Shown here: positions 6,730-57,567 of the stretch, in pieces
Layout of the letters: every line of letters starts with the position of its first letter
Position numbering within the stretch: position 1 is the stretch's first letter
NCBI GenBank assembly: GCA_964443675.1
Contig: CAYUDN010000001.1
Coordinates: 10,862-74,861, forward strand
DNA: 64,000 nucleotides
Source of the DNA: an uncultured Candidatus Saccharibacteria bacterium
Lineage (GTDB): Bacteria; Patescibacteriota; Minisyncoccia; Phycocordibacterales; UBA5272
Direction: 5' to 3'
Notes under the pieces: model-generated
What the model was told of the DNA's origin: nothing
What the model saw: the letters and a program-made list of their open reading frames with translations, nothing else
Databases searched by the model: none
Position numbers and translations under genes: made by a program

Positions 6730-7626
6730 TTACTTTTTTTCCTCACCAGCTAACATTTTTTTGAGTGCTTTTTTGATAGTTGTTTTTGGTTTCCATCCGG
6801 GTACAAGAGAATCTTTGTTCCAAGGCTTCATTATTTCTTTATTTCGATAAGGTCTTCCACCCCACACAATAGGAAGCGATTTCTTTGTTACTGATTCATA
6901 GAGTTTTGCAAGTTCTTGCAGTGTCATTCGTTCCCCTGAGCTTACCAGATATGATTTTCCGTTATAAAGATAACCTTTTTTGGTGGTGAGAAGTTTTGCC
7001 ATGTGGATGTATGCATCTACAACATTCCCAACGTAGTTCATATCAAGTATCTGTTTTCCAGGAGACATAGGGAATGGTTCTTTTGTGTTACCGATAGAGG
7101 ACCAGAGATTAAAAATTTTTGGGCGGGTATCTCCTTCACCAAAAGTGTCGAAGAGTTTAAGAGTGACTAGTATAATATCAGATGATTCTCGGTAATAGGT
7201 TGCTATATCTTCAAAGGCTTGTTTTGTTGCAGAGTAAAGGTTGAAAGGGGAATAACGCTTATTGTTACAATGTTGTGTAAAAGTTCCAGTATTGATAAAC
7301 CACTTTGTCTTACTCTTTGTGGTTGCTTCAAGGAGTGTACTTGCAAATAATATATTGGACTGAATAAGAGGTTCTACATCTGTTTCTTTATGTGAAACAA
7401 GAAAAAGAGAGGCGAGGTGTATCACCCCGTCAAATTTTTCTGTATTCATAAACGTTATAAGAGAGCTAACCGAGGTGTACACATGCACTTTTTTTAGGGG
7501 AACAGGAAATTCTTTTTCTAGGGACGTTTCTCGAACAATGATATGTACAGCATTACCCTCTTCAACCAACTTCTTCACGAGATGTTTTCCTATAAAACCA
7601 GTAGCTCCACTAATAAGAATTTTCAT
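6730..7626 (-). CDS. CDP-3,6-dideoxyhexose synthase-like SDR reductase (RfbJ/RfbS family)
   Basis: 'MKILISGATGFIGKHLVKKL' Rossmann motif, 'IHLAS', and a YxxxK-containing core. Its length and blocks resemble the Salmonella RfbJ/RfbS reductases. Confidence 0.55.
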   Translation of the reverse strand: MKILISGATGFIGKHLVKKLVEEGNAVHIIVRETSLEKEFPVPLKKVHVYTSVSSLITFMNTEKFDGVIHLASLFLVSHKETDVEPLIQSNILFASTLLEATTKSKTKWFINTGTFTQHCNNKRYSPFNLYSATKQAFEDIATYYRESSDIILVTLKLFDTFGEGDTRPKIFNLWSSIGNTKEPFPMSPGKQILDMNYVGNVVDAYIHMAKLLTTKKGYLYNGKSYLVSSGERMTLQELAKLYESVTKKSLPIVWGGRPYRNKEIMKPWNKDSLVPGWKPKTTIKKALKKMLAGEEKK

Positions 7627-7632
7627 AGTCGA

Positions 7633-8169
7633 TCAAAAAGGAGAGTTAAACTTTGCAAAAGGAGGCAGAGTGAGGTCTTTTTCTGAAACAATATACTCGT
7701 TAAGTGTGATAGAGAGATCAAAAGAATCGACACGAATACCCGCGTCATGTTCTTTTGAAAACTGTCCTGATTGCAAGTAAAAGGTGCAAGTATTATCTTC
7801 ATGAGTGATAAAGCCGTGCGCGCATCCTTTTGGAATATAGACCATCTTTCCATTGCTTTGACTGAGTTCGACGGTTATATGTTTACCATATGTGGTAGAG
7901 TTTTTTCGTAGATCAAGAATAATGTCAGTAACAGACCCAGAAGAAACACCTATGATTTTGATGTGATCTTTTGGAGGAAGGTGAAAATGCATTCCCCGTA
8001 CTACGTTTTTTTGAGAAACAGAATAAAAACATTCCTCGATGGTAACCCCAAGGTCCATTTTTTCAAAAGCGTCTTTATTAAATGTTTTAACAAAAGTTCC
8101 TCGATGGTCTTTAAAAACAGTTGGTTCTAAAATAAAGACACCCGCTATTTCTGTTTCTGTTTGCTTCAT
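7633..8169 (-). CDS. RmlC-fold (cupin) sugar-nucleotide 3,5/5-epimerase
   Basis: A 178-aa ORF with 'FKDHRGTFVKTF' and 'RGMHFH' blocks, characteristic of dTDP-4-dehydrorhamnose 3,5-epimerase and AscE-type epimerases. Confidence 0.7.
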   Translation of the reverse strand: MKQTETEIAGVFILEPTVFKDHRGTFVKTFNKDAFEKMDLGVTIEECFYSVSQKNVVRGMHFHLPPKDHIKIIGVSSGSVTDIILDLRKNSTTYGKHITVELSQSNGKMVYIPKGCAHGFITHEDNTCTFYLQSGQFSKEHDAGIRVDSFDLSITLNEYIVSEKDLTLPPFAKFNSPF

Positions 8170-9416
8170 TACTTTTTCTTTTTTTCCGATTTTATTTTTT
8201 GTTGTGAAAGAAATTCGTCAAATTTTGATTTAAGATATTCAATCTGCTCATCGTTAAGACCATGGTGACAAGCAACGACAAAGCCATTTTTCATGATCCT
8301 GTCAGTGTTAGGGAAGGCTGTACTGATTTTTCTGTTTTCAATTTTTCTGAACCCTGGTTGCTTAAGAATATTTCCAGCAAAAACTGGCCTTGTTTGAATG
8401 TTGTTGTCTTCAAGGAAGGTGATGATTTCGAGACGGGTAAATGAAGCTTTTGGTTTAATGATAAGAGGGAAGGCAAGCCACGCTGTTTCGGTGTCAGGTG
8501 TTTGTGTTGGAAGGTCAAAGAACTCACTTTTAGTTTTCATAAAAGCAATTAAGGTTTCAAAGTTCTTTTTTCTTTGCTCTAGGAAACCAGGAAGTCTTTT
8601 CATTTGAGCAAGCGCAAAAGCAGAAGAGATTTCGAGGGGAAGGAAGTTATAACCAACTTCACTAAAAATAAATTTGTTATCGTAAGGAATACCTCCAAGT
8701 TTGAAGTTAAAACGATTCTTAAGAAGTTCGGAATTTGCTTTTTCTCCATAAAGAGATGATTGACGTCCCCAACCACGAAGCACTTTGAGACGATTTACCC
8801 ATTTAGGGTCATTAACCATAATCATTCCTCCTCCTCCTGCACCGTTAATTATGTGAGATCCGTAGAAGCTTGTCGTGGTGATATGAGAATAGGTACCTGT
8901 TGGCTTATTGTAGAGCTTGCCTCCAAGAGTGTCACAAGAATCTTCGATAAGGAAAAGCTTGTGTTTTTTTGCAATATCAGCAAGAGCTTTGAGATCAGGA
9001 ATGTTTCCCATAAGAGAAGGGATCATCAAAGCTTTCGTCTTTTTTGTGATTGCTTTTTTAACTTGCTCAATATTTACAATATATGTTGTCGGATCAACGT
9101 CAACAAATACTGGAACAAGTCCTTTCTGAACAATTGGAGCAACCACGGTTGCAAAAGTGAGTGCCGGGGTTATCACCTCAGATCCTTTTGGAAGATTGAG
9201 AAGCTCAAATGCAAGAAGATTTGCTGAAGATCCAGAATTAACCATTGTACCGTATGCCTTACCGAACATTTTTGCAATTTTTGCTTCGAACTCTGTAGTT
9301 TTGTCTCCAAGAGCAGTGTTCCCTTTGAGGACTTCTACCACTGCGTCAATTTCTTCTTGTCCGTGTACAGAGAATCCGTAAGGTACTCGTAATTTTTGTT
9401 CAGTTTTTTTACTCAT
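8169..9416 (-). CDS. DegT/DnrJ/EryC1-family PLP/PMP enzyme, likely CDP-4-keto-6-deoxyglucose 3-dehydrase (RfbH/DdhC, E1-like)
   Basis: The 415-aa ORF is divergent from rfbG-rfbF. It shows the DegT fold blocks 'GSSANLLAFELL' and 'LFLIEDSCDTLG'. Position beside ddhA/ddhB suggests the E1 role rather than an aminotransferase. Confidence 0.65.
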   Translation of the reverse strand: MSKKTEQKLRVPYGFSVHGQEEIDAVVEVLKGNTALGDKTTEFEAKIAKMFGKAYGTMVNSGSSANLLAFELLNLPKGSEVITPALTFATVVAPIVQKGLVPVFVDVDPTTYIVNIEQVKKAITKKTKALMIPSLMGNIPDLKALADIAKKHKLFLIEDSCDTLGGKLYNKPTGTYSHITTTSFYGSHIINGAGGGGMIMVNDPKWVNRLKVLRGWGRQSSLYGEKANSELLKNRFNFKLGGIPYDNKFIFSEVGYNFLPLEISSAFALAQMKRLPGFLEQRKKNFETLIAFMKTKSEFFDLPTQTPDTETAWLAFPLIIKPKASFTRLEIITFLEDNNIQTRPVFAGNILKQPGFRKIENRKISTAFPNTDRIMKNGFVVACHHGLNDEQIEYLKSKFDEFLSQQKIKSEKKKK

Positions 9417-9593
9417 AAAATATATTAAAGTTTAGTGTGACACTACTATTTATAATGTTCTAGTATCCATGATAACAAAGTTTTACGAAAAAGTAACTAG
9501 TTTTGACATTATCACAAATGAGTTGTATTTTGTTGAATTGTTTGCAGTCGTGTCAGTTCTTTATTATAATCGAAAAATAGTTTCCCTTTATTT

Positions 9594-10670
9594 ATGTCCC
9601 TCCACTCGTTTTATAAAAATAAAAAAGTTCTTATCACTGGACATACTGGGTTTAAGGGTTCTTGGTTTACAGAAATCCTCCTCCTTATGGGGGCGCACGT
9701 GTCTGGTATTTCTCTTGTGCCCACATCAACACCTAACCTTTTCACTCTTTTGGGGTTGGAAAAAAGATGTTCAAGTTATATTGCCGATATCCGCAACAGA
9801 GAGGAAATGCTTCGTATTATTAGTAAAGAAAAACCCGAAATCATTTTTCATCTTGCTGCACAACCTATTGTAAGAACAAGTTACGATGATCCTTTGGGTA
9901 CAATTTCGACAAATGTTAACGGTACGGCGAATATTCTTGATGTTGTTCGTGAGGTTGGATTTGTTAAGTCAGTAGTAATTATTACTACCGATAAAGTGTA
10001 CGAAAATAAAGAGTGGCATTATGCGTATCGTGAGAACGATCCTCTTGGTGGGCATGATCCATATAGTTCAAGTAAAGCAGCGGCAGATATTATTTCTTAT
10101 TCGTATATTCAATCTTTTTTCAATCCTGAGAATTTCGAAAAAACACATAACACTCTCGTTGCTATTGCCCGAGCAGGTAATGTTATCGGAGGAGGTGACT
10201 GGTCTGAGTACCGACTTATTCCTGATGTAATTCGTGCTACTTACCATCATGGGAAACATGTAGAAATACGTAACCCTGATTCAGTGAGACCGTGGCAGCA
10301 TGTTCTTGAACCTATTTCTGGATATTTAATGTTAGGAAAAGAATTGTATGAGAAAAAAACACTTGTATCTGGTGCATGGAATTTCGGTCCACACAATGAT
10401 AGCTTTGTAAGTGTGAGAGCTCTTGCAGAGGGTGCGCAGGAGATTCTTGGCAAGGGAGGGTTTATTATTACTCCAGATACCTCTAAACATGAAGCAAACC
10501 TTCTTAAACTCGATATTAATAAAGCCATTGCTCTTCTTGGATGGAAGCCGGTGCTTTCTTTTAAAGAAACGCTTGAGCTTACTTTTTTGTGGTATAAAGA
10601 GTATTATGAGAGTAAAGGGGATATGGTTGCCTTTACAAACAGACAAATTAAACATTTTTTTAAAATATAA
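9594..10670 (+). CDS. rfbG: CDP-glucose 4,6-dehydratase
   Basis: 'KVLITGHTGFKGSWFTEILLLMGAHV' is the hallmark N-terminus of RfbG/DdhB. The length is 358 aa. Confidence 0.8.
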   Translation: MSLHSFYKNKKVLITGHTGFKGSWFTEILLLMGAHVSGISLVPTSTPNLFTLLGLEKRCSSYIADIRNREEMLRIISKEKPEIIFHLAAQPIVRTSYDDPLGTISTNVNGTANILDVVREVGFVKSVVIITTDKVYENKEWHYAYRENDPLGGHDPYSSSKAAADIISYSYIQSFFNPENFEKTHNTLVAIARAGNVIGGGDWSEYRLIPDVIRATYHHGKHVEIRNPDSVRPWQHVLEPISGYLMLGKELYEKKTLVSGAWNFGPHNDSFVSVRALAEGAQEILGKGGFIITPDTSKHEANLLKLDINKAIALLGWKPVLSFKETLELTFLWYKEYYESKGDMVAFTNRQIKHFFKI

Positions 10671-10673
10671 CGT

Positions 10674-11459
10674 ATGAAGGTAGTTATTTTGGCGGGTGGT
10701 TTTGGGACAAGGATAAGTGAGGAAACTGTGGTTAAACCAAAACCAATGGTTGAAATTGGTGGTAAACCAATTCTTTGGCATATCATGAAGATCTACTCAC
10801 ATTACGGATTTAATGATTTTGTGATTTGTCTTGGGTATAAGAGTCATTATGTGAAAGAGTGGTTTAGTGATTATTTTCTACACTCAAGTGACTTTACTGT
10901 TGACTTATCTAAGAACACTATTACTCACCATCGTAACGGTGCAGAGAAATGGAAGGTAACCCTTGTTGATACTGGTGATACTACAATGACTGGTGGACGC
11001 ATCAAAAGAATTAAGAAGTACATCGGTAATAAACCTTTTATGGCTACGTATGGTGATGGTGTTGCAGATATTGATGTTAAAAAACTTGTTGACTTTCATA
11101 AGAAACATAAGAAGATTGCAACGGTTACTTCTGTCTATCCGGAAGGAAGGTTCGGTACTATTTTTATTGATGAAAAGTCTTCAGTAACTGCATTTGGTGA
11201 GAAAAAAGATAATAAAAACAGAGTCAATGGTGGTTTTTTTGTATTTCAACCAGAAGTATTTGATTACATCGAAGGAGATGATACTGTTTTTGAAAAATAC
11301 CCACTTGAAACATTGGCGAAAGAAGGGCAGCTAAAAGCGTACCATCATGACGGTTTTTGGAAACCAATGGATACACTTAATGATAAAAATAAATTAGAGG
11401 AAATGTGGCACAATGATGCTCCGTGGGGTGTTTGGCTTCATTCTGCCAAGAAACGATAG
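10674..11459 (+). CDS. rfbF: Glucose-1-phosphate cytidylyltransferase
   Basis: 'MKVVILAGGFGTRISEETVVKPKPMVEIGGKPILWHIMK' is the classic RfbF/DdhA sequence. The length is 261 aa. Confidence 0.85.
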   Translation: MKVVILAGGFGTRISEETVVKPKPMVEIGGKPILWHIMKIYSHYGFNDFVICLGYKSHYVKEWFSDYFLHSSDFTVDLSKNTITHHRNGAEKWKVTLVDTGDTTMTGGRIKRIKKYIGNKPFMATYGDGVADIDVKKLVDFHKKHKKIATVTSVYPEGRFGTIFIDEKSSVTAFGEKKDNKNRVNGGFFVFQPEVFDYIEGDDTVFEKYPLETLAKEGQLKAYHHDGFWKPMDTLNDKNKLEEMWHNDAPWGVWLHSAKKR

Positions 11460-11463
11460 GTAT

Positions 11464-13251
11464 ATGAAAAAAAACAGTCAACTTCCCACTAAACGGTGTG
11501 CAAGTATTGTGGCTAGTTTTTTAGCAGAAAAAAAAGTTACTCATGTGTTTGATTTAACAGGAGGAATGATTGCGTACCTAGAAGATGCTATCAGCCTTAC
11601 TAAAGGAATCGAATGTCTTCCAATGCATCACGAACAAGCATCTGGGTTTGCTGCGGAGGGGTATGCTAGAAAAAATCAAAACTTTGGTGTTGCTATTGCT
11701 ACCAGTGGTCCAGGGGCAACAAATATGATTACTTCAATCGGGAGCTGTTTTTTTGATTCAGTGCCAACACTCTTTATTACTGGACAGGTGAATACAGAAA
11801 GTATTAAAAAGAATAACAAGGTGAGGCAGGAAGGTTTTCAGGAGACGGATATCGTTTCGATGGTCTCAGGTATTACTAAGTATGCAACGCTTGTGCGGCG
11901 TGCAGAAGATATTCTTTATGAGCTTGAAAAAGCTTGTTTTTTGATGAAAGAAGGGAGACCTGGTCCTGTTCTCCTCGACATTCCTATTGATGTGCAAAGA
12001 ACAGAAGTTTGTATTGCTTCTTGTCGTCATTTTATAGGATCAAAAGAATACCATCGTCTTGTTAAGAAGAGTGATGCGTATAAGAACGTTGCTACAAAAA
12101 AAGTAAAAGCTTTTGAGAAGATGCTCAGCTCTTCCCGTGCACCGCTTATTGTTCTTGGTAACGGTGCTCGTATTTCAGACGCAGGTAAAAAGATTCTCTC
12201 GTTTGCTTCTCGTAACCATATCCCTATCGTTTCTTCTCTTATGGGGTTAGATGTTATTGCTCATGATGAGCTTTTTGTTGGATACATTGGATCAAACGGT
12301 AACCGTGAAGCAAATATTACTTTTGCAAACGCTGATCTGATTATTGCTCTTGGGACACGACTTGATGTACGTCAAATCGGTACCCCAAAATACTTTACTA
12401 CACGAGCAAAGCTTGTGCATGTTGACATTGATAAGAGCTCTATTAACTATATGGTGCCCGCCACACTTGCTTTTGAGAACGATATTAGTGCATTTTTATC
12501 TGCAGTTCTTCATTGTAAAAATTCTAAAAAAGAAACCTGGTTTAGTTTTATTACTTCAGTGAAGCAGTCATTTAAGCGAGAGTTTGTATATGATGGACCC
12601 TTTGTTGATCCGAATACCTTTTTTGACGAACTCTCTTCTTGTTCCAAAGAGAAAACAACCGTTGTTGTTGATGTTGGGCAGAATCAGATGTGGTGCGCTC
12701 AGTCATGGAAGGTAAAAGAAGGCCAAAGACTTCTTTTTTCCGGTGGAATGGGCGCGATGGGTTTTTCTCTTCCTGCCTCTGTTGGCGCATGGTGTGCAGA
12801 CACAAAGGCGCCTCTTGTGGTGATTACAGGGGATGGAGGACTTCAGATTAATATTCAAGAACTGGAAACAGTATCCAGAAATCAGATTCCACTTAAACTA
12901 TTTGTTATCAACAACAAGTCGCTTGGAATGGTACGCGAGTTTCAAGACCTGTATTTTAATAAAAACTACCAGTCCACTGTTCGTGGGTATGGTTGTCCTG
13001 ATCTTAAAAAAGTTGCAGAAGCATATAATTTTCATTATGAAAAAGTTTCTTCTGTTGCAAAAAATGATTTACATTTGAAAAAGATTATGGAAATGACGGT
13101 GCCGGTGCTTATCGAGGTTGATGTTGATATGCATGCACCGCTTCAGCCAAAGATTGTGTATGGTCATGCGCTTGATGATCAGGCTCCATATCTTGATACT
13201 ACACAAAAAGAATTTCTGGAAAATCTTAAGAAGCAACTTCATGAGTCGTAA
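11464..13251 (+). CDS. Thiamine-pyrophosphate-dependent enzyme (acetolactate-synthase-like), YerE-like
   Basis: Three-domain TPP enzyme architecture with a 'GDGGLQINIQELETV' TPP-binding motif. It sits directly after rfbF. The ATG at 11464 follows rfbF's stop; the ORF-track start at 11413 overlaps rfbF. Confidence 0.7.
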   Translation: MKKNSQLPTKRCASIVASFLAEKKVTHVFDLTGGMIAYLEDAISLTKGIECLPMHHEQASGFAAEGYARKNQNFGVAIATSGPGATNMITSIGSCFFDSVPTLFITGQVNTESIKKNNKVRQEGFQETDIVSMVSGITKYATLVRRAEDILYELEKACFLMKEGRPGPVLLDIPIDVQRTEVCIASCRHFIGSKEYHRLVKKSDAYKNVATKKVKAFEKMLSSSRAPLIVLGNGARISDAGKKILSFASRNHIPIVSSLMGLDVIAHDELFVGYIGSNGNREANITFANADLIIALGTRLDVRQIGTPKYFTTRAKLVHVDIDKSSINYMVPATLAFENDISAFLSAVLHCKNSKKETWFSFITSVKQSFKREFVYDGPFVDPNTFFDELSSCSKEKTTVVVDVGQNQMWCAQSWKVKEGQRLLFSGGMGAMGFSLPASVGAWCADTKAPLVVITGDGGLQINIQELETVSRNQIPLKLFVINNKSLGMVREFQDLYFNKNYQSTVRGYGCPDLKKVAEAYNFHYEKVSSVAKNDLHLKKIMEMTVPVLIEVDVDMHAPLQPKIVYGHALDDQAPYLDTTQKEFLENLKKQLHES

Positions 13252-13254
13252 GGT

Positions 13255-14190
13255 ATGAAAAAAGTCGCACTGCTCGGTGTTACAGGGTATATCGGAAAAT
13301 CCCTACTGAATGAATTCTGTGCACATCCGAAAAAGTATTCACTTTTTCTTTTTTCACGTTCAGTAGACGGTATAGCTAAGCACTTGCAAGGTGTTGATCT
13401 TTCGAAAATTCAGTACGCTATGTGTTCGCTTGATGACTTTGATATATATGAATATGACGTAGTTATCAACTGTACTGGTATAGGTGACCCTGGTCAGTTA
13501 CAAAAGAATCCAAGTGCAATTTTCTCTGTAACTGAGAGTGTGGACGAGATGGTGATTAGTTACCTTATGAAGCATAAAAAGTGTCTCTACCTTGCCATGA
13601 GTAGTGGTGCTGTGTATGGTAACGCTTTTACAAAACCAGTTACCAGTGCAACAAAAGTTGTACTTCCTTCTGTTGCGACTACACCGCATGACTTTTATAC
13701 AATTTCTAAAATACACACAGAAGCAAAACATCGTGCATTGAAGGATCTTAATATTGTCGATTTACGAGTTTTTGCGTTTTTTAGCAGATTCGTTGATGGT
13801 AAGGCTGGTTTTTTCATGTCACAAGTTGTTGATTGTTTGCAAAAGAAGAAAGTTTTTAAAACAAGCACTCATGATATGGTTCGAGACTATTGTGTACCGT
13901 CTGATTTGTTTGCACTAGTACAAATGGTTATGAAGAAAAAGAAAGTTAACAATTCTTTTGATGTGTATAGTAAACGGTCAATAACAAAGAAGAAGTTATT
14001 AGCATTCTTAAAAAAGCATTACGGCCTACGTTATGAATATACAAGCGAGCAGGTAATTGGAAAACGTGCCACTGAAAAGAATGCGTATTGTTCTCTTGAT
14101 AAAAAAGCGGAAGAAATCGGGTATACACCAAAATTCACCTCGCTAGAGGGAATTTCGAGTGAGCTCAGCCTATTTTTTAAGCCTAAGTAG
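13255..14190 (+). CDS. NAD(P)-dependent epimerase/reductase (SDR), paralog of the 1315-2295 gene
   Basis: 'MKKVALLGVTGYIGKSLL'. It is collinear with the minus-strand paralog at 1315-2295 and is a YerF-like reductase candidate. Confidence 0.65.
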   Translation: MKKVALLGVTGYIGKSLLNEFCAHPKKYSLFLFSRSVDGIAKHLQGVDLSKIQYAMCSLDDFDIYEYDVVINCTGIGDPGQLQKNPSAIFSVTESVDEMVISYLMKHKKCLYLAMSSGAVYGNAFTKPVTSATKVVLPSVATTPHDFYTISKIHTEAKHRALKDLNIVDLRVFAFFSRFVDGKAGFFMSQVVDCLQKKKVFKTSTHDMVRDYCVPSDLFALVQMVMKKKKVNNSFDVYSKRSITKKKLLAFLKKHYGLRYEYTSEQVIGKRATEKNAYCSLDKKAEEIGYTPKFTSLEGISSELSLFFKPK

Positions 14191-15043
14191 TCTCTTTTTT
14201 GAAGTATCTAGCAGAGTCTGCTTTCATTGCATTAACAATTTCTTTAATGCCGTCTTCTAGCGTTGTGGTTGCTTTCCAGTAGGTATGAATAAATGGGTCT
14301 GGTTCATTTCTTTTATCTTTTTGAACATCATCTTTTGAACTTGCTGGCACAACTGTTGAGCCAGGGAAGTGTGAAGCAATAATCGAAGCAACGTTAAGAA
14401 TGTTAGTCCACTCAAAGTTAGTAATATGCAGCTCTTTGTCACGTGGAATTTCGTTATATTTTTCTGCAAGTGTTAGCAGTGCTTCACAGCAATCATCTGC
14501 ATACAAGAACTGACGCTCTTCTTCACCATTTGTAAGGAGATCAATGGTGCCTGTATCATGAGCCTTAATGATAAGGTCGGTGATTACGTGAGATTTATCG
14601 AGGTCGTGCTCTATACCGTATACGTTCCAAAATTTAACAACAAGCCCGCCAAGAATAGAGGTGTACGATTCGCCAACAGATTTTAGTCGACCGTAGCTAG
14701 AGTATGTCATGTTCGCCATTTGGCTCGATGCAAAAAGAAATGGTTTTTTGGTGGTGTGAAGTACATCAAACGTGTGTGTCATAAGCTTCATATTGTTGCT
14801 TATGAAATCAGGGGTTTGCTGATAAAGTTTTAGGTAACGAGAACCTCCGACATCAAATGCAAGGAAAAATACGAAATCAGCTTCTTTGATATAACGTTCA
14901 AGAAGAGGATTTTTGTAGATTCGAAGATCTTGTTCATCGCTGTTAACGATATCAAATTCCAAAACAGTATGACCTGCTTTTTTTAAAAAACTGGTCAACG
15001 CGGCACCAATTTGCCCTTCAGAACCCAAAACAAGGTATTTCAT
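14183..15043 (-). CDS. NAD-dependent epimerase/dehydratase family protein
   Basis: 'MKYLVLGSEGQIGAALTSFLKKAGHTV' Rossmann motif. The 286-aa ORF is convergent with, and overlaps by 8 nt, the stop of the previous gene. Confidence 0.6.
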   Translation of the reverse strand: MKYLVLGSEGQIGAALTSFLKKAGHTVLEFDIVNSDEQDLRIYKNPLLERYIKEADFVFFLAFDVGGSRYLKLYQQTPDFISNNMKLMTHTFDVLHTTKKPFLFASSQMANMTYSSYGRLKSVGESYTSILGGLVVKFWNVYGIEHDLDKSHVITDLIIKAHDTGTIDLLTNGEEERQFLYADDCCEALLTLAEKYNEIPRDKELHITNFEWTNILNVASIIASHFPGSTVVPASSKDDVQKDKRNEPDPFIHTYWKATTTLEDGIKEIVNAMKADSARYFKKETT

Positions 15044-15246
15044 GTAAAAGTAAAGTTAATGAATATATAAGTAAATGTACAGTACTTTTAATTCTTTGTA
15101 AATGTATTTCACTTAGTAAGATTATAGACACAATGGTTTATATATAAGTCAATATTTTCAAGTCTTTTTTATAATGATAGAGTAAGTTTAGGTTCCTTAT
15201 AGAGACTATATGTCTTATAAGGTTGTTTGTTTTTTTGGGGCAAAAT

Positions 15247-16251
15247 ATGAAGACTGCGCTTGTGCTTGGTGCTGGTGGCTTCATCGGTCATCACATGGTT
15301 AATCAACTGAAGTCGGAAGGGTTCTGGGTCCGCGGTGTTGACATCAAGGATCCAGAATTCGAGCCGACGAAGGCTGATGATTTTCAGATCTTCGACCTTC
15401 GTAACTACTATGGTCTGAATCAGATCATGACGACTCCGCAAGGGGATGTGTTTGATCAGATCTACCAATTTGCTGCCGACATGGGCGGTGCTGGGTATGT
15501 GTTTTCAGGTCATCATGATTACGACATCATGCATAACTCTGGGCAAATCAACCTGAATGTGTCCCGTGTTCAGCTTGCGCTTAATCAGGTTCACAAGACA
15601 AACAAGACTGTTATCTTTTACAGTAGCAGTGCTTGCATGTATCCTGAGTACAACCAACTGGATCCGGATAATCCGAATTGCAGCGAAGACTCAGCATACC
15701 CTGCTAACCCTGATAGCGAGTACGGTTGGGAGAAGCTCTTCAGTGAGCGGATGTATCTCTCTCTTCTGCGTTGCTATGGGGTTCAGGTCCGTATTGCTCG
15801 TTTCCACAACATCTTCGGACCTCTTGGTACCTGGGAAGGTGGCAAGGAAAAGGCTCCAGCTGCCTTCTGTCGCAAGCTTGCGATGGCAAATAACGGTGAC
15901 ACGATTGAAGTGTGGGGAGATGGAATGCAAACGCGTTCTTTCCTCTACATTGATGAGTGCATCAAGGCGGTAAGGCTTTTGGTTGAATCTGACTTCGTTG
16001 GTCCGGTGAATATCGGTTCTGACGAAATGGTTTCGATCAACCAGCTTATCGATATGGTTTCCAAGATCTCCGGTAAGGATGTTGGAAGGAATCACATCCC
16101 TGGTCCTCTTGGTGTTCGTGGTCGCAATTCTGATAACAGGCTGTATCAAGAAAAGATCGGATGGTCTGTCTCTCAACCGCTTGAAGTTGGCCTTCGAGAG
16201 ACCTATAAGTGGATTGCCGAGCAGGTTGCCATGAAGCACTCGACAAAGTGA
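15247..16251 (+). CDS. GDP-mannose 3,5-epimerase-like NAD-dependent epimerase
   Basis: Long blocks almost identical to plant and bacterial GME: 'SSSACMYPE', 'RIARFHNI(F/Y)GP(L/F)GTW.GG.EKAPAAFCRK', 'WGDG.QTRSF..IDEC', 'NIGSDEMVS', 'HIPGP.GVRGRNSDN'. The start is moved to ATG 15247 (MKTALVLGAGGFIGHH). Visibly G+C-rich relative to its neighbours. Confidence 0.75.
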   Translation: MKTALVLGAGGFIGHHMVNQLKSEGFWVRGVDIKDPEFEPTKADDFQIFDLRNYYGLNQIMTTPQGDVFDQIYQFAADMGGAGYVFSGHHDYDIMHNSGQINLNVSRVQLALNQVHKTNKTVIFYSSSACMYPEYNQLDPDNPNCSEDSAYPANPDSEYGWEKLFSERMYLSLLRCYGVQVRIARFHNIFGPLGTWEGGKEKAPAAFCRKLAMANNGDTIEVWGDGMQTRSFLYIDECIKAVRLLVESDFVGPVNIGSDEMVSINQLIDMVSKISGKDVGRNHIPGPLGVRGRNSDNRLYQEKIGWSVSQPLEVGLRETYKWIAEQVAMKHSTK

Positions 16252-16278
16252 TTATGACTCAGTGATGGGTTGTAACAA

Positions 16279-16308
16279 AACCGTAGCACAGCTACGGTTT
16301 TTCTTTTG
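16279..16308 (+). terminator. Rho-independent terminator after the GME-like gene
   Basis: Hairpin ccgtagc-aca-gctacgg followed by a TTTTTCTTTT run. Confidence 0.6.
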
Positions 16309-16311
16309 TTA

Positions 16312-16347
16312 TCAATAATAAATAAAACCCCCGGTATACGCCAGGGG
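16312..16347 (-). terminator. Putative terminator of the NUDIX gene (minus strand)
   Basis: Hairpin cccccgg/ccagggg (6 of 7 bp) followed on the minus strand by TTTTATTTATT. Confidence 0.45.
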
Positions 16348-16361
16348 TTGTTGAACTTCAT

Positions 16362-17096
16362 CTATTCAAACGTGAGTCTTCCAAGTTTTCGGAATGCTAC
16401 GTATGTCGATGCGCGTGCGCAATCCTCGAGACCGAAGTCTGGATTGTCATCAAAGAGCGAATTATCTTCAAGAAGCTTGAGCCATTCATTGCATGGAAAG
16501 AGTACTACAGCAAGATGTTCGGTGCTGTCGAATTTTGCAACACCTCGCTTTGTATACGGTTTTACTTTTCCAAGAAATGCAAAGCAACGCGCTTCACTGT
16601 TGCGCACAGAATGAAACGTGCCATTTTTTGAAGAAAGAGGGGTAACACTTTCGAGTTCAAGCCCTGTTTCTTCATGCCATTCACGTATCGCTGTTGCTTC
16701 CATTTTTTCTGCAAGTGTTGGTAAGTGTGACTCTTCACGACCTGCAACACCACAGACTGGAACAATGGCAATATGATTGTTGCCGTGCTTCCATTCTGCT
16801 GTTACAGCAACATATTTGTCATCGATAAGTGCAATAACAAGAGCGTATGGCTTGAATTCAACACGGAACGCATCGAATACAGAATCATCGAATGGGTTCC
16901 TGTGCTCAATTGCAAACGACTTCGGTGCAAATTTTCGATATGCCGCAAGTTGCCCCTCTTTGGCATTTTTGAGAAAATCTTCAATCGGCACTTGTTCGCT
17001 AATCTTTGGCCATAATTGTATCCCTGTATCACGAATCACTTGGAAACAGTTTTTGGCGGTCACAATCGGCCACCCAAGAACTGGGTGTTTGTTCAT
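16362..17096 (-). CDS. NUDIX hydrolase (possible nucleotide-sugar hydrolase)
   Basis: Nudix box 'REWHEETGLE' within GX5EX7REUXEEXGU. An AAGGA SD sits 7 nt upstream of the ATG at 17096. It is adjacent to the GME-like gene, so GDP-mannose hydrolase is a candidate role. Confidence 0.7.
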   Translation of the reverse strand: MNKHPVLGWPIVTAKNCFQVIRDTGIQLWPKISEQVPIEDFLKNAKEGQLAAYRKFAPKSFAIEHRNPFDDSVFDAFRVEFKPYALVIALIDDKYVAVTAEWKHGNNHIAIVPVCGVAGREESHLPTLAEKMEATAIREWHEETGLELESVTPLSSKNGTFHSVRNSEARCFAFLGKVKPYTKRGVAKFDSTEHLAVVLFPCNEWLKLLEDNSLFDDNPDFGLEDCARASTYVAFRKLGRLTFE

Positions 17097-17235
17097 GTAT
17101 ATTCCTTTACTGGTTTTGTTACAAGTTTAAAGATCTTTTGTAATTATGCCACCATGCTACAGAAATGTCAACACTCTTTTCAGTAGTTCTGCACCATGTT
17201 CGCAAAACGTACTATGCTGTACTATAATTATATAT

Positions 17236-17736
17236 ATGATTATTCAATATAACGATTTACAAAGTATCCGAAAGCAGTTTGAGGATAAAAAAATAGTTTT
17301 CTGTTCAGGAAGTTTTGACCTGCTTCACGCAGGACATGTTCTTTTTTTTGAGGATTGTAAAAAGTATGGTGATGTTCTTGTTGTTGCTATAGGTGATGAT
17401 ACAATCTTGCGAATTAAGGGGCCTGATAGACCAATTCAAAATCAACATATTAGAATAAAAATGGTTGATTCAATAAAAGCAGTTGATTATTGTTTTATCC
17501 ATAAAAATGTCGAAGGTCCATTTCTTAACACCTTTATGGATGAAGTGCTTAGCTTACTTAAGCCTGATGTGTGGGTAGTTAATGGAGATGCCTCTGAGAT
17601 TCCGTATCGAGAGGAGTTGGCAAAAAAACACGCAACCACATTTCATATTCTTGATAGAGAATGTCCACCTGAGTTTGAAGGTATTTCCACTTCAAGTATT
17701 ATTAAAAAGATCCGAAGTGGTATCACAGTTATGTAA
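17236..17736 (+). CDS. Cytidylyltransferase-like nucleotidyltransferase (TagD / RfaE domain II family)
   Basis: 'FCSGSFDLLHAGHVLFFEDCKKYGDVLVVAIGDD' gives the HxGH nucleotidyltransferase motif with TagD-like spacing. The start is placed at an internal ATG (MIIQYN...); the track's longer N-terminus lies in an AT-rich promoter-like region. Confidence 0.6.
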   Translation: MIIQYNDLQSIRKQFEDKKIVFCSGSFDLLHAGHVLFFEDCKKYGDVLVVAIGDDTILRIKGPDRPIQNQHIRIKMVDSIKAVDYCFIHKNVEGPFLNTFMDEVLSLLKPDVWVVNGDASEIPYREELAKKHATTFHILDRECPPEFEGISTSSIIKKIRSGITVM

Positions 17737-23878: not shown

Positions 23879-24391
23879 CTAGTTGGTACGTGGCTTGTGA
23901 AGGCCTTCATACTGCAGACGAGGAAAAGGATACCGGCCAACAGACTTGGTTGCAACCCTGATGACTTGCTCGAAATTGCCGTCGGCAACCTGGGCTTCGT
24001 CGTAGAGCACTGTCGGGCCGAGCATTTCGATGAAGTCACCAAGGCGGACAACCAGTCTGTATTCGGCAGGCTTGCGCCAGAACCAGAAACCACGACCTTT
24101 GGCGGGATTGCGCCAGAACAGCAGTACTGCGCCCTCACCGATCTGGAAGCCATCCACACGCTCGTGCTCGCTAGAGCCGTCGTTGAACTGCTTTCGCACT
24201 TCCGTTTCGGTCAAGGTTCGCACCTGTTCCAAAGAGGCGAACTCATGACGAACTGTCAGGCCGGTAGCGTGACGAATCTCGATACCTTCCTCGTTGATGG
24301 TGATCTGAATCTCACCCATTGCAATTTTGGATTCATCTGTCGGTGAAAGACCTGTGAAGGTTCCAAAGTAACGCTGAATGCCGTGTTCCAT
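23879..24391 (-). CDS. Hypothetical protein (170 aa) on G+C-rich foreign-looking DNA
   Basis: The ATG at 24391 is preceded by a GGAG SD about 8 nt upstream. Codon third positions are strongly G/C-biased, unlike most genes in the window. It contains the tandem motif 'FWRNPAKGRGFWFWRKPAE'. No family was recognised. Overlapping opposite-strand ORFs (23897-24346, 23719-24159) are judged to be GC-driven artefacts. Confidence 0.5.
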   Translation of the reverse strand: MEHGIQRYFGTFTGLSPTDESKIAMGEIQITINEEGIEIRHATGLTVRHEFASLEQVRTLTETEVRKQFNDGSSEHERVDGFQIGEGAVLLFWRNPAKGRGFWFWRKPAEYRLVVRLGDFIEMLGPTVLYDEAQVADGNFEQVIRVATKSVGRYPFPRLQYEGLHKPRTN

Positions 24392-24460
24392 AGCTGATCT
24401 CCGTGTGTATAAAGAACAAAAGCATTATACAACATATATACTGTATTTGTCAATATATGT

Positions 24461-24481
24461 GGACAGTAGAGGATTCGACGA
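24461..24481 (-). repeat. Exact 20-21 nt copy of the tRNA-Val 3' end (att-like partial tRNA duplication)
   Basis: Plus strand gtggacagtagaggattcga is the reverse complement of TCGAATCCTCTACTGTCCAC, identical to the 3' T-arm and acceptor segment of the tRNA-Val at 24835-24906. No upstream tRNA body is present. Confidence 0.6.
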
Positions 24482-24658
24482 TTGTTAAGGGTTTTCTTTT
24501 TCGTGTTGCACACTCAAACAAAAACTCTTAACTTTCGCCTAAGCTTCGTCGCCACAACTTTTGATTACAAAAGTTGGCTTCGCTTGCGGCTCAGTTCGAA
24601 TCCTCTACATGTCGCACAAAACATAATCACCCGAAGCCTTCGCTTCAGGTTCATTGTT

Positions 24659-24680
24659 TTGTGGACAGTAGAGGTTCGGT
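24659..24680 (-). repeat. Degenerate copy of the tRNA-Val 3' end (att-like scar)
   Basis: Plus strand gtggacagtagaggttcggtcc matches the acceptor 3' strand exactly, but its T-loop is degraded (ACCGAAC in place of TTCGAAT). Confidence 0.4.
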
Positions 24681-24795
24681 CCCAAATCTGCCTCGCTTTG
24701 CCTGCCTAAAGGCAAGGCAGACTCGAAGCAGATTCCTGACCTGTATTCGAATCCTCACGAACATGAAGCAGTTCATGTTCTTACTATCCACGAAC

Positions 24796-24826
24796 AAAAA
24801 CGGCACGGATTACCGTGCTCATTTTT
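24796..24826. terminator. Bidirectional intrinsic terminator downstream of tRNA-Val
   Basis: aaaaa-cggcacgg-atta-ccgtgc-tcattttt: hairpin gcacgg/ccgtgc flanked by an A-run and a T-run. Confidence 0.6.
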
Positions 24827-24834
24827 GTACTCGT

Positions 24835-24906
24835 GGACAGTAGAGGATTCGAACCTCTGACATCTACAACGTCAATGTAGCGCTCTACCAACTGAGCTAA
24901 CCGTCC
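24835..24906 (-). tRNA. tRNA-Val (anticodon GAC)
   Basis: Manual fold of the reverse complement: acceptor GGACGGT/ACTGTCC, D-arm GCTC-AGTTGGTA-GAGC, anticodon stem CTACA/TGTAG with loop TTGACGT (GAC), T-arm AGAGG-TTCGAAT-CCTCT and discriminator A. Confidence 0.85.
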
Positions 24907-25016
24907 CTATGATCTACTAGTATACTATATAACACCAATTTTGAAAAAGTAAAATAATATGGTATTATATCGCGTACCGGTGATACTTTTTATTAAAAGG
25001 GTTTCACTATAAAGAC

Positions 25017-25091
25017 GGCCCCATCGTCTATCGGTTAGGACATCGGCTTTTCATGCCGGTAAGCGGAGTTCGACTCTCCGTAGGGTCACCA
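25017..25091 (+). tRNA. tRNA-Glu (anticodon UUC), CCA encoded
   Basis: Collinear with E. coli tRNA-Glu: acceptor GGCCCCA/TAGGGTC (one C-A mismatch, one G-U), D-stem GTCT/GGAC, anticodon stem TCGGC/GCCGG with loop TTTTCAT (TTC), T-arm CGGAG-TTCGACT-CTCCG and encoded CCA. Confidence 0.75.
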
Positions 25092-25212
25092 ACGAAGATT
25101 TATCTTCACCACATTCGGTTGTTTTTACGTTGTTATAACAACGTAAAAGTAGTTGCAATATTTGCGTCATTTTATCTGTTATTTCTCTGATATAACAGAT
25201 AATGTTAGATAA

Positions 25213-25260
25213 CAAAAAAGACCCCCGCTTCGCATGACAATGTCATTTGATTTGGGGGTC
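25213..25260 (-). terminator. Rho-independent terminator of the SPFH gene
   Basis: gaccccc...gggggtc stem with an internal atgacaatgtcat palindrome, followed on the minus strand by TTTTTTGTT. Confidence 0.6.
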
Positions 25261-25278
25261 TGACCAGCACTGGTCTGG

Positions 25279-26217
25279 TTACTTGAGAGGGACTGTCGCC
25301 GGCACAGCCAGTTCGCCGATGATGGCCGTGCAGTTGGCTTTCGCTCCGCACTTCTCCACCGCTTCGACTTGCTTCTTGGCAACTTCCAGCTTGAGGAACT
25401 GCTCCGGCGTAAAGCCGACGCTGTTGCGGTAGGCGTTGTCCGCATTGGCGCGTTCGGTTTCAGCGCCCTTGCGATTGATTTCCGCTTTCCGGCGCTCGTC
25501 TTCAGTCTTTGCACGCTGTTGTTGCGAAGCAGTTTCAGCGAGAGCTTCGAGAACCTTGCTGGGAGGAGTTGCTTTGCCGACGATGACTTCCATCACTTCG
25601 ACATCGATGCCCTTGGCCTTCACGAACTCGCGCATCTCGGTGAGAACGACACGCTGGATTTCTCCGAGAATGTCTTTCCCTTCCTTGTTGAGCTGGCGGG
25701 TTGTGAGGGCTGTCATCGGCGTCTTGGCCACTTCATCGCGCACCGAGGTACGAAACAGTTCCTTAAGGTTCTGCTTGTACCAGTCAGGGCCGAAAGACGC
25801 ATGCAGTTTCGGGGTCTTGCCGGGGATCGGCCGGACCTTGATGTATGCATTGAAGTCGATCGGGATGTTGTCGACGGTGATCGTGCCATCCTTGACGTCA
25901 TCGAACCCTTCCGTAAACTGGAAAGGGCGCGTGTCGTACATGACGACGTTCGTCGTGTAGAAGAGCCACTTCGAGCCGGTGACATGGGGTTCTTGACGAA
26001 CACCGCCGTCACCGAACATCGTGAAGAACGGCTTGTCGATGAGGACGGCCTCGTGACCGGCCTCGACTTGCACCCGTTGCGTGACCATCACCATGAAGGC
26101 GATGAACAGGACGAACGAGATTGCGCCGATGATGCGCTTCTTGTATTGAGTCCAGAAACTGAACTCGTTTTCATGGCCGTAGCTCATGGGATTTCCTTTC
26201 GTGGGTTGTGTTGTCAA
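25279..26217 (-). CDS. SPFH/band-7 (stomatin/prohibitin-like) membrane protein
   Basis: N-terminal TM helix (IIGAISFVLFIAFMVMV) followed by an SPFH-type domain and an Ala/Glu/Lys-rich coiled-coil tail. An AGGAA SD precedes the ATG at 26217. Strongly G+C-rich codon usage. The three +strand ORFs overlapping it are rejected as antisense artefacts. Confidence 0.75.
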   Translation of the reverse strand: MTTQPTKGNPMSYGHENEFSFWTQYKKRIIGAISFVLFIAFMVMVTQRVQVEAGHEAVLIDKPFFTMFGDGGVRQEPHVTGSKWLFYTTNVVMYDTRPFQFTEGFDDVKDGTITVDNIPIDFNAYIKVRPIPGKTPKLHASFGPDWYKQNLKELFRTSVRDEVAKTPMTALTTRQLNKEGKDILGEIQRVVLTEMREFVKAKGIDVEVMEVIVGKATPPSKVLEALAETASQQQRAKTEDERRKAEINRKGAETERANADNAYRNSVGFTPEQFLKLEVAKKQVEAVEKCGAKANCTAIIGELAVPATVPLK

Positions 26218-26584
26218 AAAAACAGAAAATGTATCAGGAACATATATATCATATTATGATTATTATATTTTGTCAAGGCCGAAATTTTGCTTGATTTTAC
26301 TCACTAATACATAGTTCTATACCAGATACGGTATATAAACTAGAAGAGTTTTTGATGGTTTTTCTATGGAAAGATTGTAAAATATAGATATTATTCATAA
26401 TTAGTTAGTGCTAAAAGTCGATTTGGATACTTATTGAAAACTGTTTTCCATTTTATAATCTCATTTTCAATGGTGTTCCACCCTAGATAGTACTGGCTCA
26501 CCTTCAACAGCTAGCACTAGAAGGGTGCTTAAAGTAGTAAAAACAGTGTCTAAAAAACGCTGTTTTTACTATGCTTTTTTACCT

Positions 26585-26613
26585 TGACTTTTTACTACTT
26601 TCATGCTATTATT
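26585..26613 (+). promoter_or_regulatory. Candidate sigma70 promoter for the 26689 gene (TTGACT-N17-TATTAT)
   Basis: Read from the AT-rich 470-bp spacer between the two G+C-rich genes. A 10-bp hairpin gtaaaaacag...ctgtttttac lies just upstream at 26531-26563. Confidence 0.4.
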
Positions 26614-26688
26614 GTAGGAGTCACAATCTGTGGCAAATTGTTTCGGCAATGTAAACCGAGTTTGAACATTTACAAGGAGAGATAACCC

Positions 26689-56358: not shown

Positions 56359-56693
56359 CAGAAGTATCCTTTCAAAAAAAGTTGAAGAACAGTGTGAGAC
56401 CCTTCTGTCTCACAGGTATTAGTATAGCACGGGTAGTGTGATTGTGGAAGGTGAAAGGTGGGCCACTTCGCTTGTAGAGAGTGGAAGGGAGGGAAGAATG
56501 AAGAGTGAAAAGGAAAACAAAAAACCGCGGCGACTCCCGTCGTAGCGGCTTCCTGATCAAGTTGTCTTTTTTTGACTTCGTACACACGCTGTGTACCAAG
56601 AGTCTTGATCGCGGAGTTGCGAGCTCCTACTCTTGTGACCTTCTCAGGTCTCTAGATCTTCAACTCAAGGGTTTCTCCTTGTTGAGGTTTTTC

Positions 56694-56861
56694 TTACCGT
56701 TGCCAGGGGGCAGCGGCTTGAGGGCGGCGGGGGATGAACTTCTGCCGGATGGTCTTCGACCGCGCAGTGTGGGTCTTCCGCAGCGCATCGAAGCGTTCCC
56801 GCTTCTTACGCCGCTCCTCTTCTGCGAAGAACTCGCAGAAAGTCTTGTCCCAGTCGGTCAA
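56694..56861 (-). CDS. Small Arg/Lys-rich protein (55 aa), TTG start, translationally coupled to the upstream gene
   Basis: The upstream gene's TAA stop is embedded in an SD (cTAAGGAGAacca), followed by TTG. Frame: (M)TDWDKTFCEFFAEEERRKKRERFDALRKTHTARSKTIRQKFIPRRPQAAAPWQR. G+C-rich. Not in the ORF track. Confidence 0.35.
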   Translation of the reverse strand: MTDWDKTFCEFFAEEERRKKRERFDALRKTHTARSKTIRQKFIPRRPQAAAPWQR

Positions 56862-56870
56862 TGGTTCTCC

Positions 56871-57476: not shown

Positions 57477-57567
57477 TCAAACCCTCCTTAGGGTATTGCG
57501 TTGAAAGAAATTTGAGAGATCTAATACAACGAACTCTTAGGTATAAGCATAGCATATCTTAGTATTT

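Follow-up and report, generated by a model that had tools for sequence, protein, structure and literature searches.

The GDP-mannose 3,5-epimerase (GME, in the literature also GM35E) has been characterised from Arabidopsis thaliana (PDB 2C54/2C59) and, as the first bacterial representative, from Methylacidiphilum fumariolicum SolV in 2019, at which time UniProt listed 18 putative GM35Es of bacteria (PMC6678494); a role in glycan synthesis has been proposed for the bacterial enzymes (PMC6678494, PMC8787198). The family is defined (A. thaliana numbering) by the triad S143/Y174/K178, which carries out the oxidation and reduction at C4, the acid-base pair C145/K217, R306, which acidifies the Cys, R243, which binds the diphosphate, and N203, the conserved Asn of GM35E; these residues separate it from GDP-fucose synthase (GMER) and GalE, and the acid-base Lys replaces the GMER His (PMC8787198). 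Here, we describe a GME gene in a stretch of 64,000 nucleotides from an uncultured Candidatus Saccharibacteria bacterium (contig CAYUDN010000001.1; the whole stretch is referred to as the window), where it is located in a glycan locus, and compare it with related loci, which are referred to by L numbers. From this comparison we conclude that the GME coding sequence (CDS) has probably been replaced recurrently and on its own, as a gene-sized unit, at a fixed conserved slot, and that it did not enter the locus as part of an inserted cassette.

By every available sequence criterion, the product of 15247-16251 is a GME. A phmmer search against the PDB returned four A. thaliana GME structures (E ~1e-88 to 3.9e-89, 295-302 bits, residues 6-329), followed by UDP-glucose 4-epimerase as the next subfamily of the short-chain dehydrogenases/reductases (SDRs) with 75 bits only. 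The protein is 48.9% identical to A. thaliana 2c59 over 309 aligned residues, matches Pfam Epimerase over 4-257 (E=5.6e-29) and carries at residues 8-14 the sequence GAGGFIG, which fits the GxxGxxG NAD-binding motif of the extended-SDR Rossmann fold. All eight signature residues are kept (S128/C130/Y159/K163/N188/K202/R230/R293, corresponding to S143/C145/Y174/K178/N203/K217/R243/R306 of A. thaliana), so that the enzyme assignment of the original prediction was borne out. The gene is predicted to encode a functional GME, and the products of the enzyme are likewise predicted. With the A. thaliana and M. fumariolicum SolV enzymes it shares full-length homology, the Ser/Tyr/Lys triad and the Cys/Lys pair; it differs from the plant enzyme in its length (334 vs 377 aa), since the N- and C-terminal extensions of the latter are missing, and in its context, which is a Wzy-type glycan locus instead of ascorbate synthesis.

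The compositional anomaly of the locus comprises exactly one CDS, the GME, and not a block of 2.7 kb. The GME has a G+C content of 0.485 (window: 0.404) and a G+C content at third codon positions (GC3) of 0.525, compared with a median gene GC3 of 0.329, which agrees with the raised G+C content and the G/C-biased third positions that had been predicted for it. The robust z-score of the GC3 is 3.65 and the ordinary z-score only 1.76, because five other GC3-rich open reading frames (ORFs) inflate the spread. GC1 and GC2 are ordinary, i.e. the anomaly is carried by the third codon position alone. The shift consists mainly in a loss of A-ending codons: the frequency of A at third positions (A3) is 0.10, the lowest of the 57 ORFs of the window (background 0.29), Lys is encoded 17 times by AAG and never by AAA, and 16 of the 20 Ile codons are ATC. 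T at third positions (T3) is retained in the GME, whereas the other GC-rich ORFs of the window lose T3 too. Computed across the locus, composition and codon usage thus set the GME apart, but the downstream genes for a NUDIX hydrolase (NUDIX; GC3 0.355) and a cytidylyltransferase-like enzyme (CT; GC3 0.246) are of native composition, and the spacers are AT-rich (upstream spacer GC 0.236). Two candidate causes of the GC3 excess were rejected: amino-acid composition in view of the ordinary GC1 and GC2, and translational selection, which is made unlikely by the genes of S12, S7 and SecY in L084 and L002, which have ordinary A3 and GC3 with a deviant GME beside them, and by the agreement of GME and host GC3 in about 80 other genomes.

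The NUDIX, which is 94% identical in both, led us to L090, the nearest sampled relative of the window. The nucleotide identity between the two amounts to 90.3% in the NUDIX and 91.2% in the CT gene, drops to 72.6% over the last 405 nt of the GME and recovers at the stop codon. According to Nei-Gojobori estimates, nonsynonymous (dN) and synonymous (dS) divergences are 0.031 and 0.435 for NUDIX, 0.028 and 0.425 for CT, and 0.19 and 1.5 for the GME (dS 2.3 by LWL85), and the dN of the GME is therefore six-fold higher than that of its neighbours. The GME fragment of L090, in which all GME motifs are kept, is 79-80% identical to the alleles of L174 and L087 vs 72% to the window allele. The NUDIX of L090 is 94% identical to that of the window, compared with values of about 70% (L174) and about 63% (L087). 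Since the GME of L090 is nearer to L174 and L087 while its NUDIX is nearest to the window, the window lineage is the likelier recipient of a new allele. Another contig (L089; 98% identical) breaks off upstream of the GME, within the spacer (window position 15100), and is uninformative on the GME.

A discordance of the same kind was found independently between L084 and L002. Their flanks show 82-99% nucleotide identity along 8 kb (90% amino acid identity in the SDR that neighbours the GME, here SDR280), the intergenic region directly upstream of the GME is 99% identical, and the identity is ~71% over exactly the GME CDS. The dN of the GME is 0.168 with a saturated dS, compared with dN and dS of 0.057 and 0.87 (SDR280) and 0.080 and 1.42 in flanking genes. 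Although no other locus matches the flanks of the window as well as L058 does (Wzy 63%, DegT 85%), the L058 GME reaches an identity of only 65%, is inverted and is located on another branch of the neighbour-joining tree. Taken together, the discordances of L090, L084/L002 and L058 point to a recurrent, gene-sized allelic replacement at a fixed slot. The original prediction of a horizontal acquisition is supported for the GME CDS alone, whose history is discordant (dS 1.5-2.3 vs 0.43), but not for NUDIX and CT. Along the whole aligned stretch (L084 8032-16286 vs L002 6094-14962), nucleotide identity in 150-nt windows is a mosaic of 0.64-1.00 with more dips inside murA, which suggests frequent recombination along the whole locus and not at the GME alone.

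The slot itself is conserved. In L174, the order is rfbG-rfbF-TPP-SDR-GME-NUDIX-CT-GT2-GT-(DUF268)-Wzy with a gene-by-gene protein identity of 58-75% (TPP, thiamine-pyrophosphate enzyme; GT, glycosyltransferase), and in L087/L088 it is rfbF-TPP-SDR-GME-NUDIX-CT-GT2; the shared segments GME-NUDIX-CT-GT2-GT-Wzy (L174) and GME-NUDIX-CT-GT2 (L087/L088) are found at about 60-75% protein identity. Other arrangements are SDR280..GME-GT2-GT-Wzy-tsaD-rlmH, without NUDIX or CT, in L003, Wzy-GT-GT2-NUDIX-GME...SDR-TPP-rfbF-rfbG-DegT with an inverted GME in L058, GME..CT-NUDIX..GT2-Wzy-tsaD in L173, and a divergent SDR280/GME pair followed by murA in L002 and L082-L085. The names of these syntenic relatives are Candidatus Saccharibacteria or Patescibacteria group, and to judge by these names the host of the window most likely belongs to the Patescibacteria and is probably related to Saccharibacteria. 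From the slot shared across these loci we conclude that it predates the divergence of the lineages (tsaD about 68% identical). The claims that the block would be absent in relatives and that three genes had been inserted as a cassette could thus not be upheld: the GME occupies the matching slot in L002, L003, L058, L082-L085, L087, L090, L173 and L174, most of which were retrieved by searching with the GME itself, a sample biased toward GME presence, NUDIX and CT are of native composition, and the order GME-NUDIX-CT-GT2 is conserved in L174 and L087/L088. The presence of the GME at the corresponding position in these relatives partly speaks against the acquisition as originally predicted. NUDIX and CT accompany the GME repeatedly as a pair, though not in all loci.

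The GME also has its own signals of transcription. A motif T-G-n-T-A-G-n-G-T, which in the window reads TGATAGAGT, is invariant upstream of the GME in eight related loci, and the region around it is the putative GME promoter. Downstream of the stop codon, a hairpin with a T-run is present in seven of eight aligned related loci, although the hairpin sequence itself is not conserved. From the conserved upstream motif and the downstream hairpins we conclude that the GME is a conserved monocistronic unit. In the window, the convergent terminators that had been proposed at 16279-16347 were recovered as hairpins with T-runs at 16277-16301 (+) and 16349-16326 (-). An insertion by a mobile element was considered and rejected: the direct and inverted repeats in 14-18 kb are only short, imperfect and at chance level, no integrase, transposase or phage genes are among the family matches at 10-23 kb, and no tRNA is adjacent to the GME, the nearest being located at 24.8-25.1 kb. 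Conserved recombination sites at the CDS edges were likewise rejected, since the spacers of the eight loci share only the promoter-like TGnTAGnGT and non-homologous terminator hairpins.

The GC3 excess extends beyond the window. In about 80 unrelated genomes, the GC3 of the GME tracks that of the host with a median difference of +0.027, including hosts with a GC3 of 0.19-0.26. In the clade nearest to the window, every allele is GC3-richer than its host (+0.10 to +0.47, never negative), with the following values for allele and flanks: window 0.525/0.31, L174 0.49/about 0.29, L087 0.42/0.28, L175 0.38/about 0.28, L082 0.52/0.27, L084 0.51/0.32, L002 0.50/0.35 and L003 0.80/0.32; the fragment of L090 has a GC3 of 0.47. 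Within this clade, four-fold degenerate sites have reached saturation between the alleles. An old import, had there been only one, should by now have ameliorated. As candidate causes of the excess, a one-way import from G+C-richer donors, phage vectors and GC-biased conversion at a recombination hot spot could not be discriminated. In L003, the GME allele (7992-9005) has a GC of 0.58 and a GC3 of 0.79-0.80, while the other genes of the locus have a GC3 of about 0.27-0.40; this suggests its very recent arrival at the same slot from a donor of high GC content. The situation is reversed in L058, where the GME has a native GC3 of 0.31 and the adjoining NUDIX homologue (7055-7804) a GC of 0.55 and a GC3 of 0.68 vs flanks of ~0.31.

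Present collections show that the GME family, once thought scarce in bacteria, is widespread. GTDB, JGI metagenomes and IMG/VR were searched with six exact 8-residue GME peptide patterns. This yielded 496 confirmed GME loci in the species-representative genomes of GTDB, spanning Alphaproteobacteria, Bacteroidota, Acidobacteriota, Chloroflexota, Nitrospirota, Patescibacteria and archaea, at least 581 loci in JGI metagenomes and 262 IMG/VR viral contigs, whose GME relatives are 60-66% identical to that of the window. The best 120 protein matches to the window GME are all 63-74% identical, and the nearest named relatives belong to Saccharibacteria (73%), the Patescibacteria group (71%), Gracilibacteria (70%) and Minisyncoccia (68%). 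The gene is therefore neither of a rare bacterial type nor 'plant-type', as had been supposed, and the window GME is a routine addition to a known family that is common in prokaryotes.

We propose the following course of events. The GME forms a transcription unit of one gene with a putative promoter and a terminator of its own, in a slot conserved among related genomes, and within the lineage its CDS would have been exchanged repeatedly, gene by gene, for divergent alleles, with recombination in the conserved flanks as the likely mechanism. The window allele most likely represents one such import, which took place after the split from the nearest sampled relative, and its source was probably a G+C-richer donor of the same, largely Patescibacteria, GME clade; both the direction and the source of the transfer are deduced. 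NUDIX and CT are native, long-resident neighbours that form a recurrent functional neighbourhood with the GME. The likely reaction of the NUDIX is the cleavage of an NDP-sugar, which may be a GDP-hexose, into NMP and sugar-1-phosphate, and the transferase may activate a phosphorylated substrate with NTP (NDP, NMP and NTP, nucleoside di-, mono- and triphosphate).

Several observations weigh against this replacement scenario. L090 covers only the last 134 GME codons, so that no 5' breakpoint could be observed for the window lineage, and its reading frame is interrupted by a TGA at 28 nt from the end of the contig (aligned to 15868-15870, a TGT codon for Cys in the window), which could be a contig-end error or indicate a recently inactivated, decaying copy. 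The GME tree was built by neighbour-joining without support values, from sequences that had been pre-selected by similarity to the query. A plain model of a recent foreign gene does not predict a GC3 excess in all alleles of the clade, even in those without a visible recent replacement. A manB or manC gene for the formation of GDP-mannose was not found in the window. Finally, the search of 5.8 billion proteins with the epimerase, from which a donor clade was expected, identified no donor: the closest GME is only 74% identical, and the best matches were 73% in GTDB genomes, 66% in IMG/VR and 68% in JGI metagenomes. With no donor above 74% identity, the replacement event can be neither dated nor sourced. 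A literature search on horizontal gene transfer, glycans and GC content in Saccharibacteria gave no specific result. The possibility that the L090 GME is a neutral pseudogene was judged unlikely, as it contains no indels, a single stop and all motifs, and has a dN/dS of about 0.1.

An insertion of GME, NUDIX and CT (15.0-17.7 kb) as a unit from a distant donor of a 'plant-type' enzyme is hardly credible. The three genes lie next to each other with spacers on either side, they occur together in L087/L088, L090 and L174, and neither NUDIX nor CT separates GME and GT2 in L003 and L175, so that the pair represents an indel among relatives, all of which would suit a cassette. However, only the GME deviates in composition from the median of 0.33, the difference in dS between the GME and NUDIX/CT in the comparison with L090 contradicts a joint arrival, no flanking repeats, integrase or adjacent tRNA accompany the genes, and GMEs are widespread in bacteria, archaea and viral contigs, with Patescibacteria relatives at 68-74% vs the plant enzyme at 49% identity. 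A delivery by phages, in which GME alleles reach the slot from viruses carrying GME as an auxiliary glycan-modifying gene, appears quite improbable to us, even though a 72%-identical GME (P0015) is encoded at 10001-10999 of a phage-like scaffold (L086; ENA ERZ28594315 scaffold_22, 118 kb) together with Phage_Hfq, Thy1, Cpn10, WhiB, a SNF2 helicase and several glycosyltransferases and methyltransferases. The clade of this GME is a near neighbour of the window clade in the tree, and the 262 viral contigs mentioned above add to the reservoir that such a delivery would draw on. On the other hand, the closest viral contigs reach only 66% identity to the window GME, phage genes, att-like repeats and an integrase are missing near it, and the GC3 of the phage-like GME (0.41) is below that of the window allele.

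We also consider it unlikely that no transfer took place, i.e. that the GME was inherited vertically and a gene-specific force, such as codon or mRNA-stability selection on a strongly expressed monocistronic gene or GC-biased gene conversion, raised both its GC3 and its divergence. Such a force would account for the GC3 excess being common to every allele of the clade in syntenic position despite their mutual saturation at synonymous sites, and for the loss of A-ending codons with T3 retained, which distinguishes the GME from other GC-rich ORFs of the window; rpsA and gyrA of the window prefer AAG too. It is difficult to reconcile, however, with S12 and S7 in L084 and L002, which show neither an A3 depletion nor a GC3 rise while the GME there deviates, or with the other low-GC bacteria and archaea, in which the GC3 of the GME equals that of the host (median difference +0.027 across about 90 loci). 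Moreover, the identity drop between close relatives is sharp at the CDS boundaries, dN and dS rise together with a dN/dS near 0.1, which fits an imported functional allele and not an acceleration in place, and the L090 allele groups with those of L174 and L087 and not with that of the window. For these reasons we favour the replacement of the GME alone.

The features around the GME are compiled in Table 1. L001, an independent contig of identical sequence that stems from a different read set, gives the same calls for GME, NUDIX and CT.

Table 1 Features of the window around the GME gene, with coordinates and supporting evidence.
Feature	Coordinates	Strand	Evidence and remarks
SDR280, 286-aa NDP-sugar short-chain dehydrogenase/epimerase	14183..15043	-	Pfam Epimerase E=1.5e-21; GC3 0.338, native
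AT-rich spacer, putative GME promoter	15044..15246	.	203 bp, GC 0.236; extended -10-like TGATAGAGT at 15175-15183
GME (GDP-mannose 3,5-epimerase, GM35E), 334 aa	15247..16251	+	PDB 2c59 E=3.9e-89; GC3-rich, A3-poor
Intrinsic-terminator-like hairpin and T-run, putative end of GME transcript	16277..16311	+	11-pair stem 16277-16301, then TCTTTTGTTA
Intrinsic-terminator-like hairpin and T-run, putative end of NUDIX transcript	16316..16349	-	9-pair stem 16349-16326 (6 G-C pairs), then TTATTTATTA
NUDIX hydrolase, 244 aa, small Patescibacteria-restricted family	16362..17096	-	Pfam NUDIX 29.6 bits vs cut-off 21.1; GC3 0.355
Spacer, divergent promoter-like sites for NUDIX and CT	17097..17235	.	Consensus matches only
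Cytidylyltransferase-like nucleotidyltransferase (CT), HxGH family, 166 aa	17236..17736	+	Pfam CTP_transf_like E=5.8e-14; GC3 0.246

SDR280 is transcribed divergently from the GME. It adjoins the GME divergently also in L002 and L082-L085 and is located one gene away in L003 (69-75% identity); a specific equivalent was found neither in the PDB nor in NCBIfam, and it therefore has no specific assignment. The spacer between NUDIX and CT contains TTGACA-17-CATAAT with a TG at 17171-17143 on the - strand (11/12 consensus matches) and TTCGCA-18-TATAAT at 17199-17228 on the + strand (10/12 consensus matches).

The glycan locus as a whole extends over ~0.3-21.6 kb of the window and encodes an FkbM-type methyltransferase, GT2 glycosyltransferases, a Wzx-like flippase, RmlC-like and DegT-like enzymes, a thiamine-pyrophosphate enzyme, more SDRs and a 738-aa Wzy_C protein (Wzy-like polymerase/ligase). 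It also contains a CDP-sugar pathway with a glucose-1-phosphate cytidylyltransferase (TIGR02623, 394.8 bits, above the cut-off of 300) and a CDP-glucose-dehydratase-like SDR. At 8169-14190, this CDP-hexose pathway comprises the thiamine-pyrophosphate (acetolactate-synthase-like) enzyme. The set of DegT-like, rfbG-like, rfbF (above the equivalog cut-off), thiamine-pyrophosphate and SDR genes presumably resembles a route to a two-carbon branched-chain sugar of the yersiniose type. The locus is followed by the housekeeping genes tsaD, rlmH, type IV pilus genes, ftsA/ftsZ, hisS and gyrA.

Both downstream genes were found at the predicted coordinates as a NUDIX hydrolase and a cytidylyltransferase-type gene, with Pfam scores above the cut-offs. 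The NUDIX belongs to a small family, for which we found 28 homologues, all of them unnamed or from Patescibacteria; G116, E122, R138, E139, E142, E143 and G145 as well as an EWKHG motif are invariant in 27 of them. Compared with the Nudix box GX5EX7REUXEEXGU, the protein reads G116-x5-E122 and R138-E139-W-H-E142-E143-T-G145-L, with 15 residues instead of 7 from E122 to R138; this insertion is missing in two members of the family. The protein has an intact catalytic helix (RExxEExGU) and, at the N-terminus, an extension of about 85 residues. Sequence searches gave no match in the PDB (best E=0.29) or in NCBIfam, and a metagenome scan with NUDIX peptides returned no confirmed match. An AlphaFold2 model (predicted local distance difference test, pLDDT, 88.6; predicted template modelling score, pTM, 0.84) was compared with solved structures by Foldseek, and the top matches were an ADP-ribose diphosphatase (ADPRase), the Bdellovibrio NDP-sugar hydrolase and the E. 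coli GDP-mannose hydrolase YffH (E 4e-9 to 8e-8). The top 50 contained ADPRases, 5c7q (Bdellovibrio) and YffH (3o6z/3o61) with a probability of 1.00 and TM-scores of 0.40-0.65, at a large rmsd (8-13 A), i.e. the domain arrangement of the NUDIX may differ. As judged from this model, the protein is most likely an NDP-sugar pyrophosphatase, with fold and neighbourhood pointing to the substrate class.

With the ADPRase and NudK (YffH) branch, the NUDIX shares the predicted fold, the intact catalytic helix and the position of its gene beside that of a GDP-sugar enzyme; it differs by the N-terminal extension, the invariant EWKHG and the spacer of 15 and not 7 residues. With gmm/wcaH of E. coli, a Nudix gene is already known from within a GDP-sugar operon. 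The NUDIX adjoins GME and/or CT in the window and in L090, L174, L087/88, L058, L173 and L172. In two distant Patescibacteria, a member of the family lies directly downstream of an inositol-monophosphatase-family gene (L171 5182-6738, L172 5032-6729), and the neighbourhood in L172 also includes a GME-like SDR (48% identity), a CTP_transf_like-WecG fusion and another, small NUDIX.

The CT scores above the cut-offs of PF01467 (CTP_transf_like; 52.9 vs 21 bits) and TIGR00125 (46.6 vs 27.7 bits), and its translation contains the motifs HAGH (in FDLLHAGH) and EGISTS. It shares the HxGH superfamily and a length of ~165 aa with TagD (glycerol-3-phosphate cytidylyltransferase) and with domain II of HldE (heptose-1-phosphate adenylyltransferase), but it remains far below both equivalog cut-offs (TIGR01518, TagD: 34.9 vs 165.4 bits; TIGR02199, rfaE/HldE domain II: 87.2 vs 181.5 bits), and its best solved relative is ethanolamine-phosphate cytidylyltransferase (3elb, E=2.6e-14; TagD 1coz, E=1.4e-7). 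The predicted label 'TagD-like' thus holds at the level of the superfamily, but not for the TagD equivalog. The neighbourhood makes a functional module of GME, NUDIX and transferase plausible, with a chemistry that is predicted.

A more far-reaching idea, which we rate as improbable, combines both subjects: in Saccharibacteria-like Patescibacteria, the GME would be a swappable single-gene module whose slot is continually re-supplied from a G+C-richer pool of alleles (perhaps higher-GC relatives or GME-carrying phages), and GME, NUDIX and transferase could constitute an undescribed route from a GDP-L-hexose, made by the GME, to L-hexose-1-phosphate, which is re-activated on another nucleotide or processed by a phosphatase of the inositol-monophosphatase type, such as occurs in L171/L172. 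If this were true, the re-supply would account for the GC3 of all resident alleles being kept well above that of their hosts.

Apart from the GME, the window contains other compositional outliers. Three GC3-rich ORFs surround tRNA-Val (24833-24906, -) and tRNA-Glu (25017-25091, +) at 23879-27582: 23879-24391(-) with a GC3 of 0.60 and no family, 25279-26217(-), a Band_7/SPFH protein with a GC3 of 0.72, and 26689-27582(+) with a GC3 of 0.70 and no family. As a possible foreign island, this region is more convincing than the GME. A further outlier is a 328-aa ORF at 56505-57491 (+; GC 0.57, GC3 0.59) without a Pfam or NCBIfam match. In addition, 38675-40189 (-) encodes an unusual fusion of 504 aa with an N-terminal HTH_3 DNA-binding domain and an EPSP_synthase/MurA-type domain.

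For specialists, the locus offers two leads, neither of which is an established result. One is a possible example of the gene-by-gene replacement of a conserved sugar-nucleotide enzyme in the episymbiotic, genome-reduced Patescibacteria, in which attachment to the host and recognition by phages presumably depend on the surface glycans. The other is a small Nudix family whose genes accompany those of GME and a cytidylyltransferase-like enzyme, which suggests an unstudied step in the metabolism of L-hexose nucleotides.

The closest parallel to the proposed replacement is the gene-wise exchange of alleles known from capsule and O-antigen loci, in which serotype genes are exchanged by homologous recombination through their conserved flanks. 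The GME slot resembles these systems in its conserved flanks, in the sharp identity drop confined to one block, in the deviant G+C content of this block and in the recurrence in independent pairs of loci. It differs from them in that a single conserved nucleotide-sugar enzyme is swapped, and not glycosyltransferase or wzx/wzy genes, and in that the GME block is G+C-richer than the genome, whereas the classical O-antigen clusters are G+C-poorer; moreover, the host here is an ultra-small bacterium of the Patescibacteria, unlike those of the O-antigen and capsule systems.

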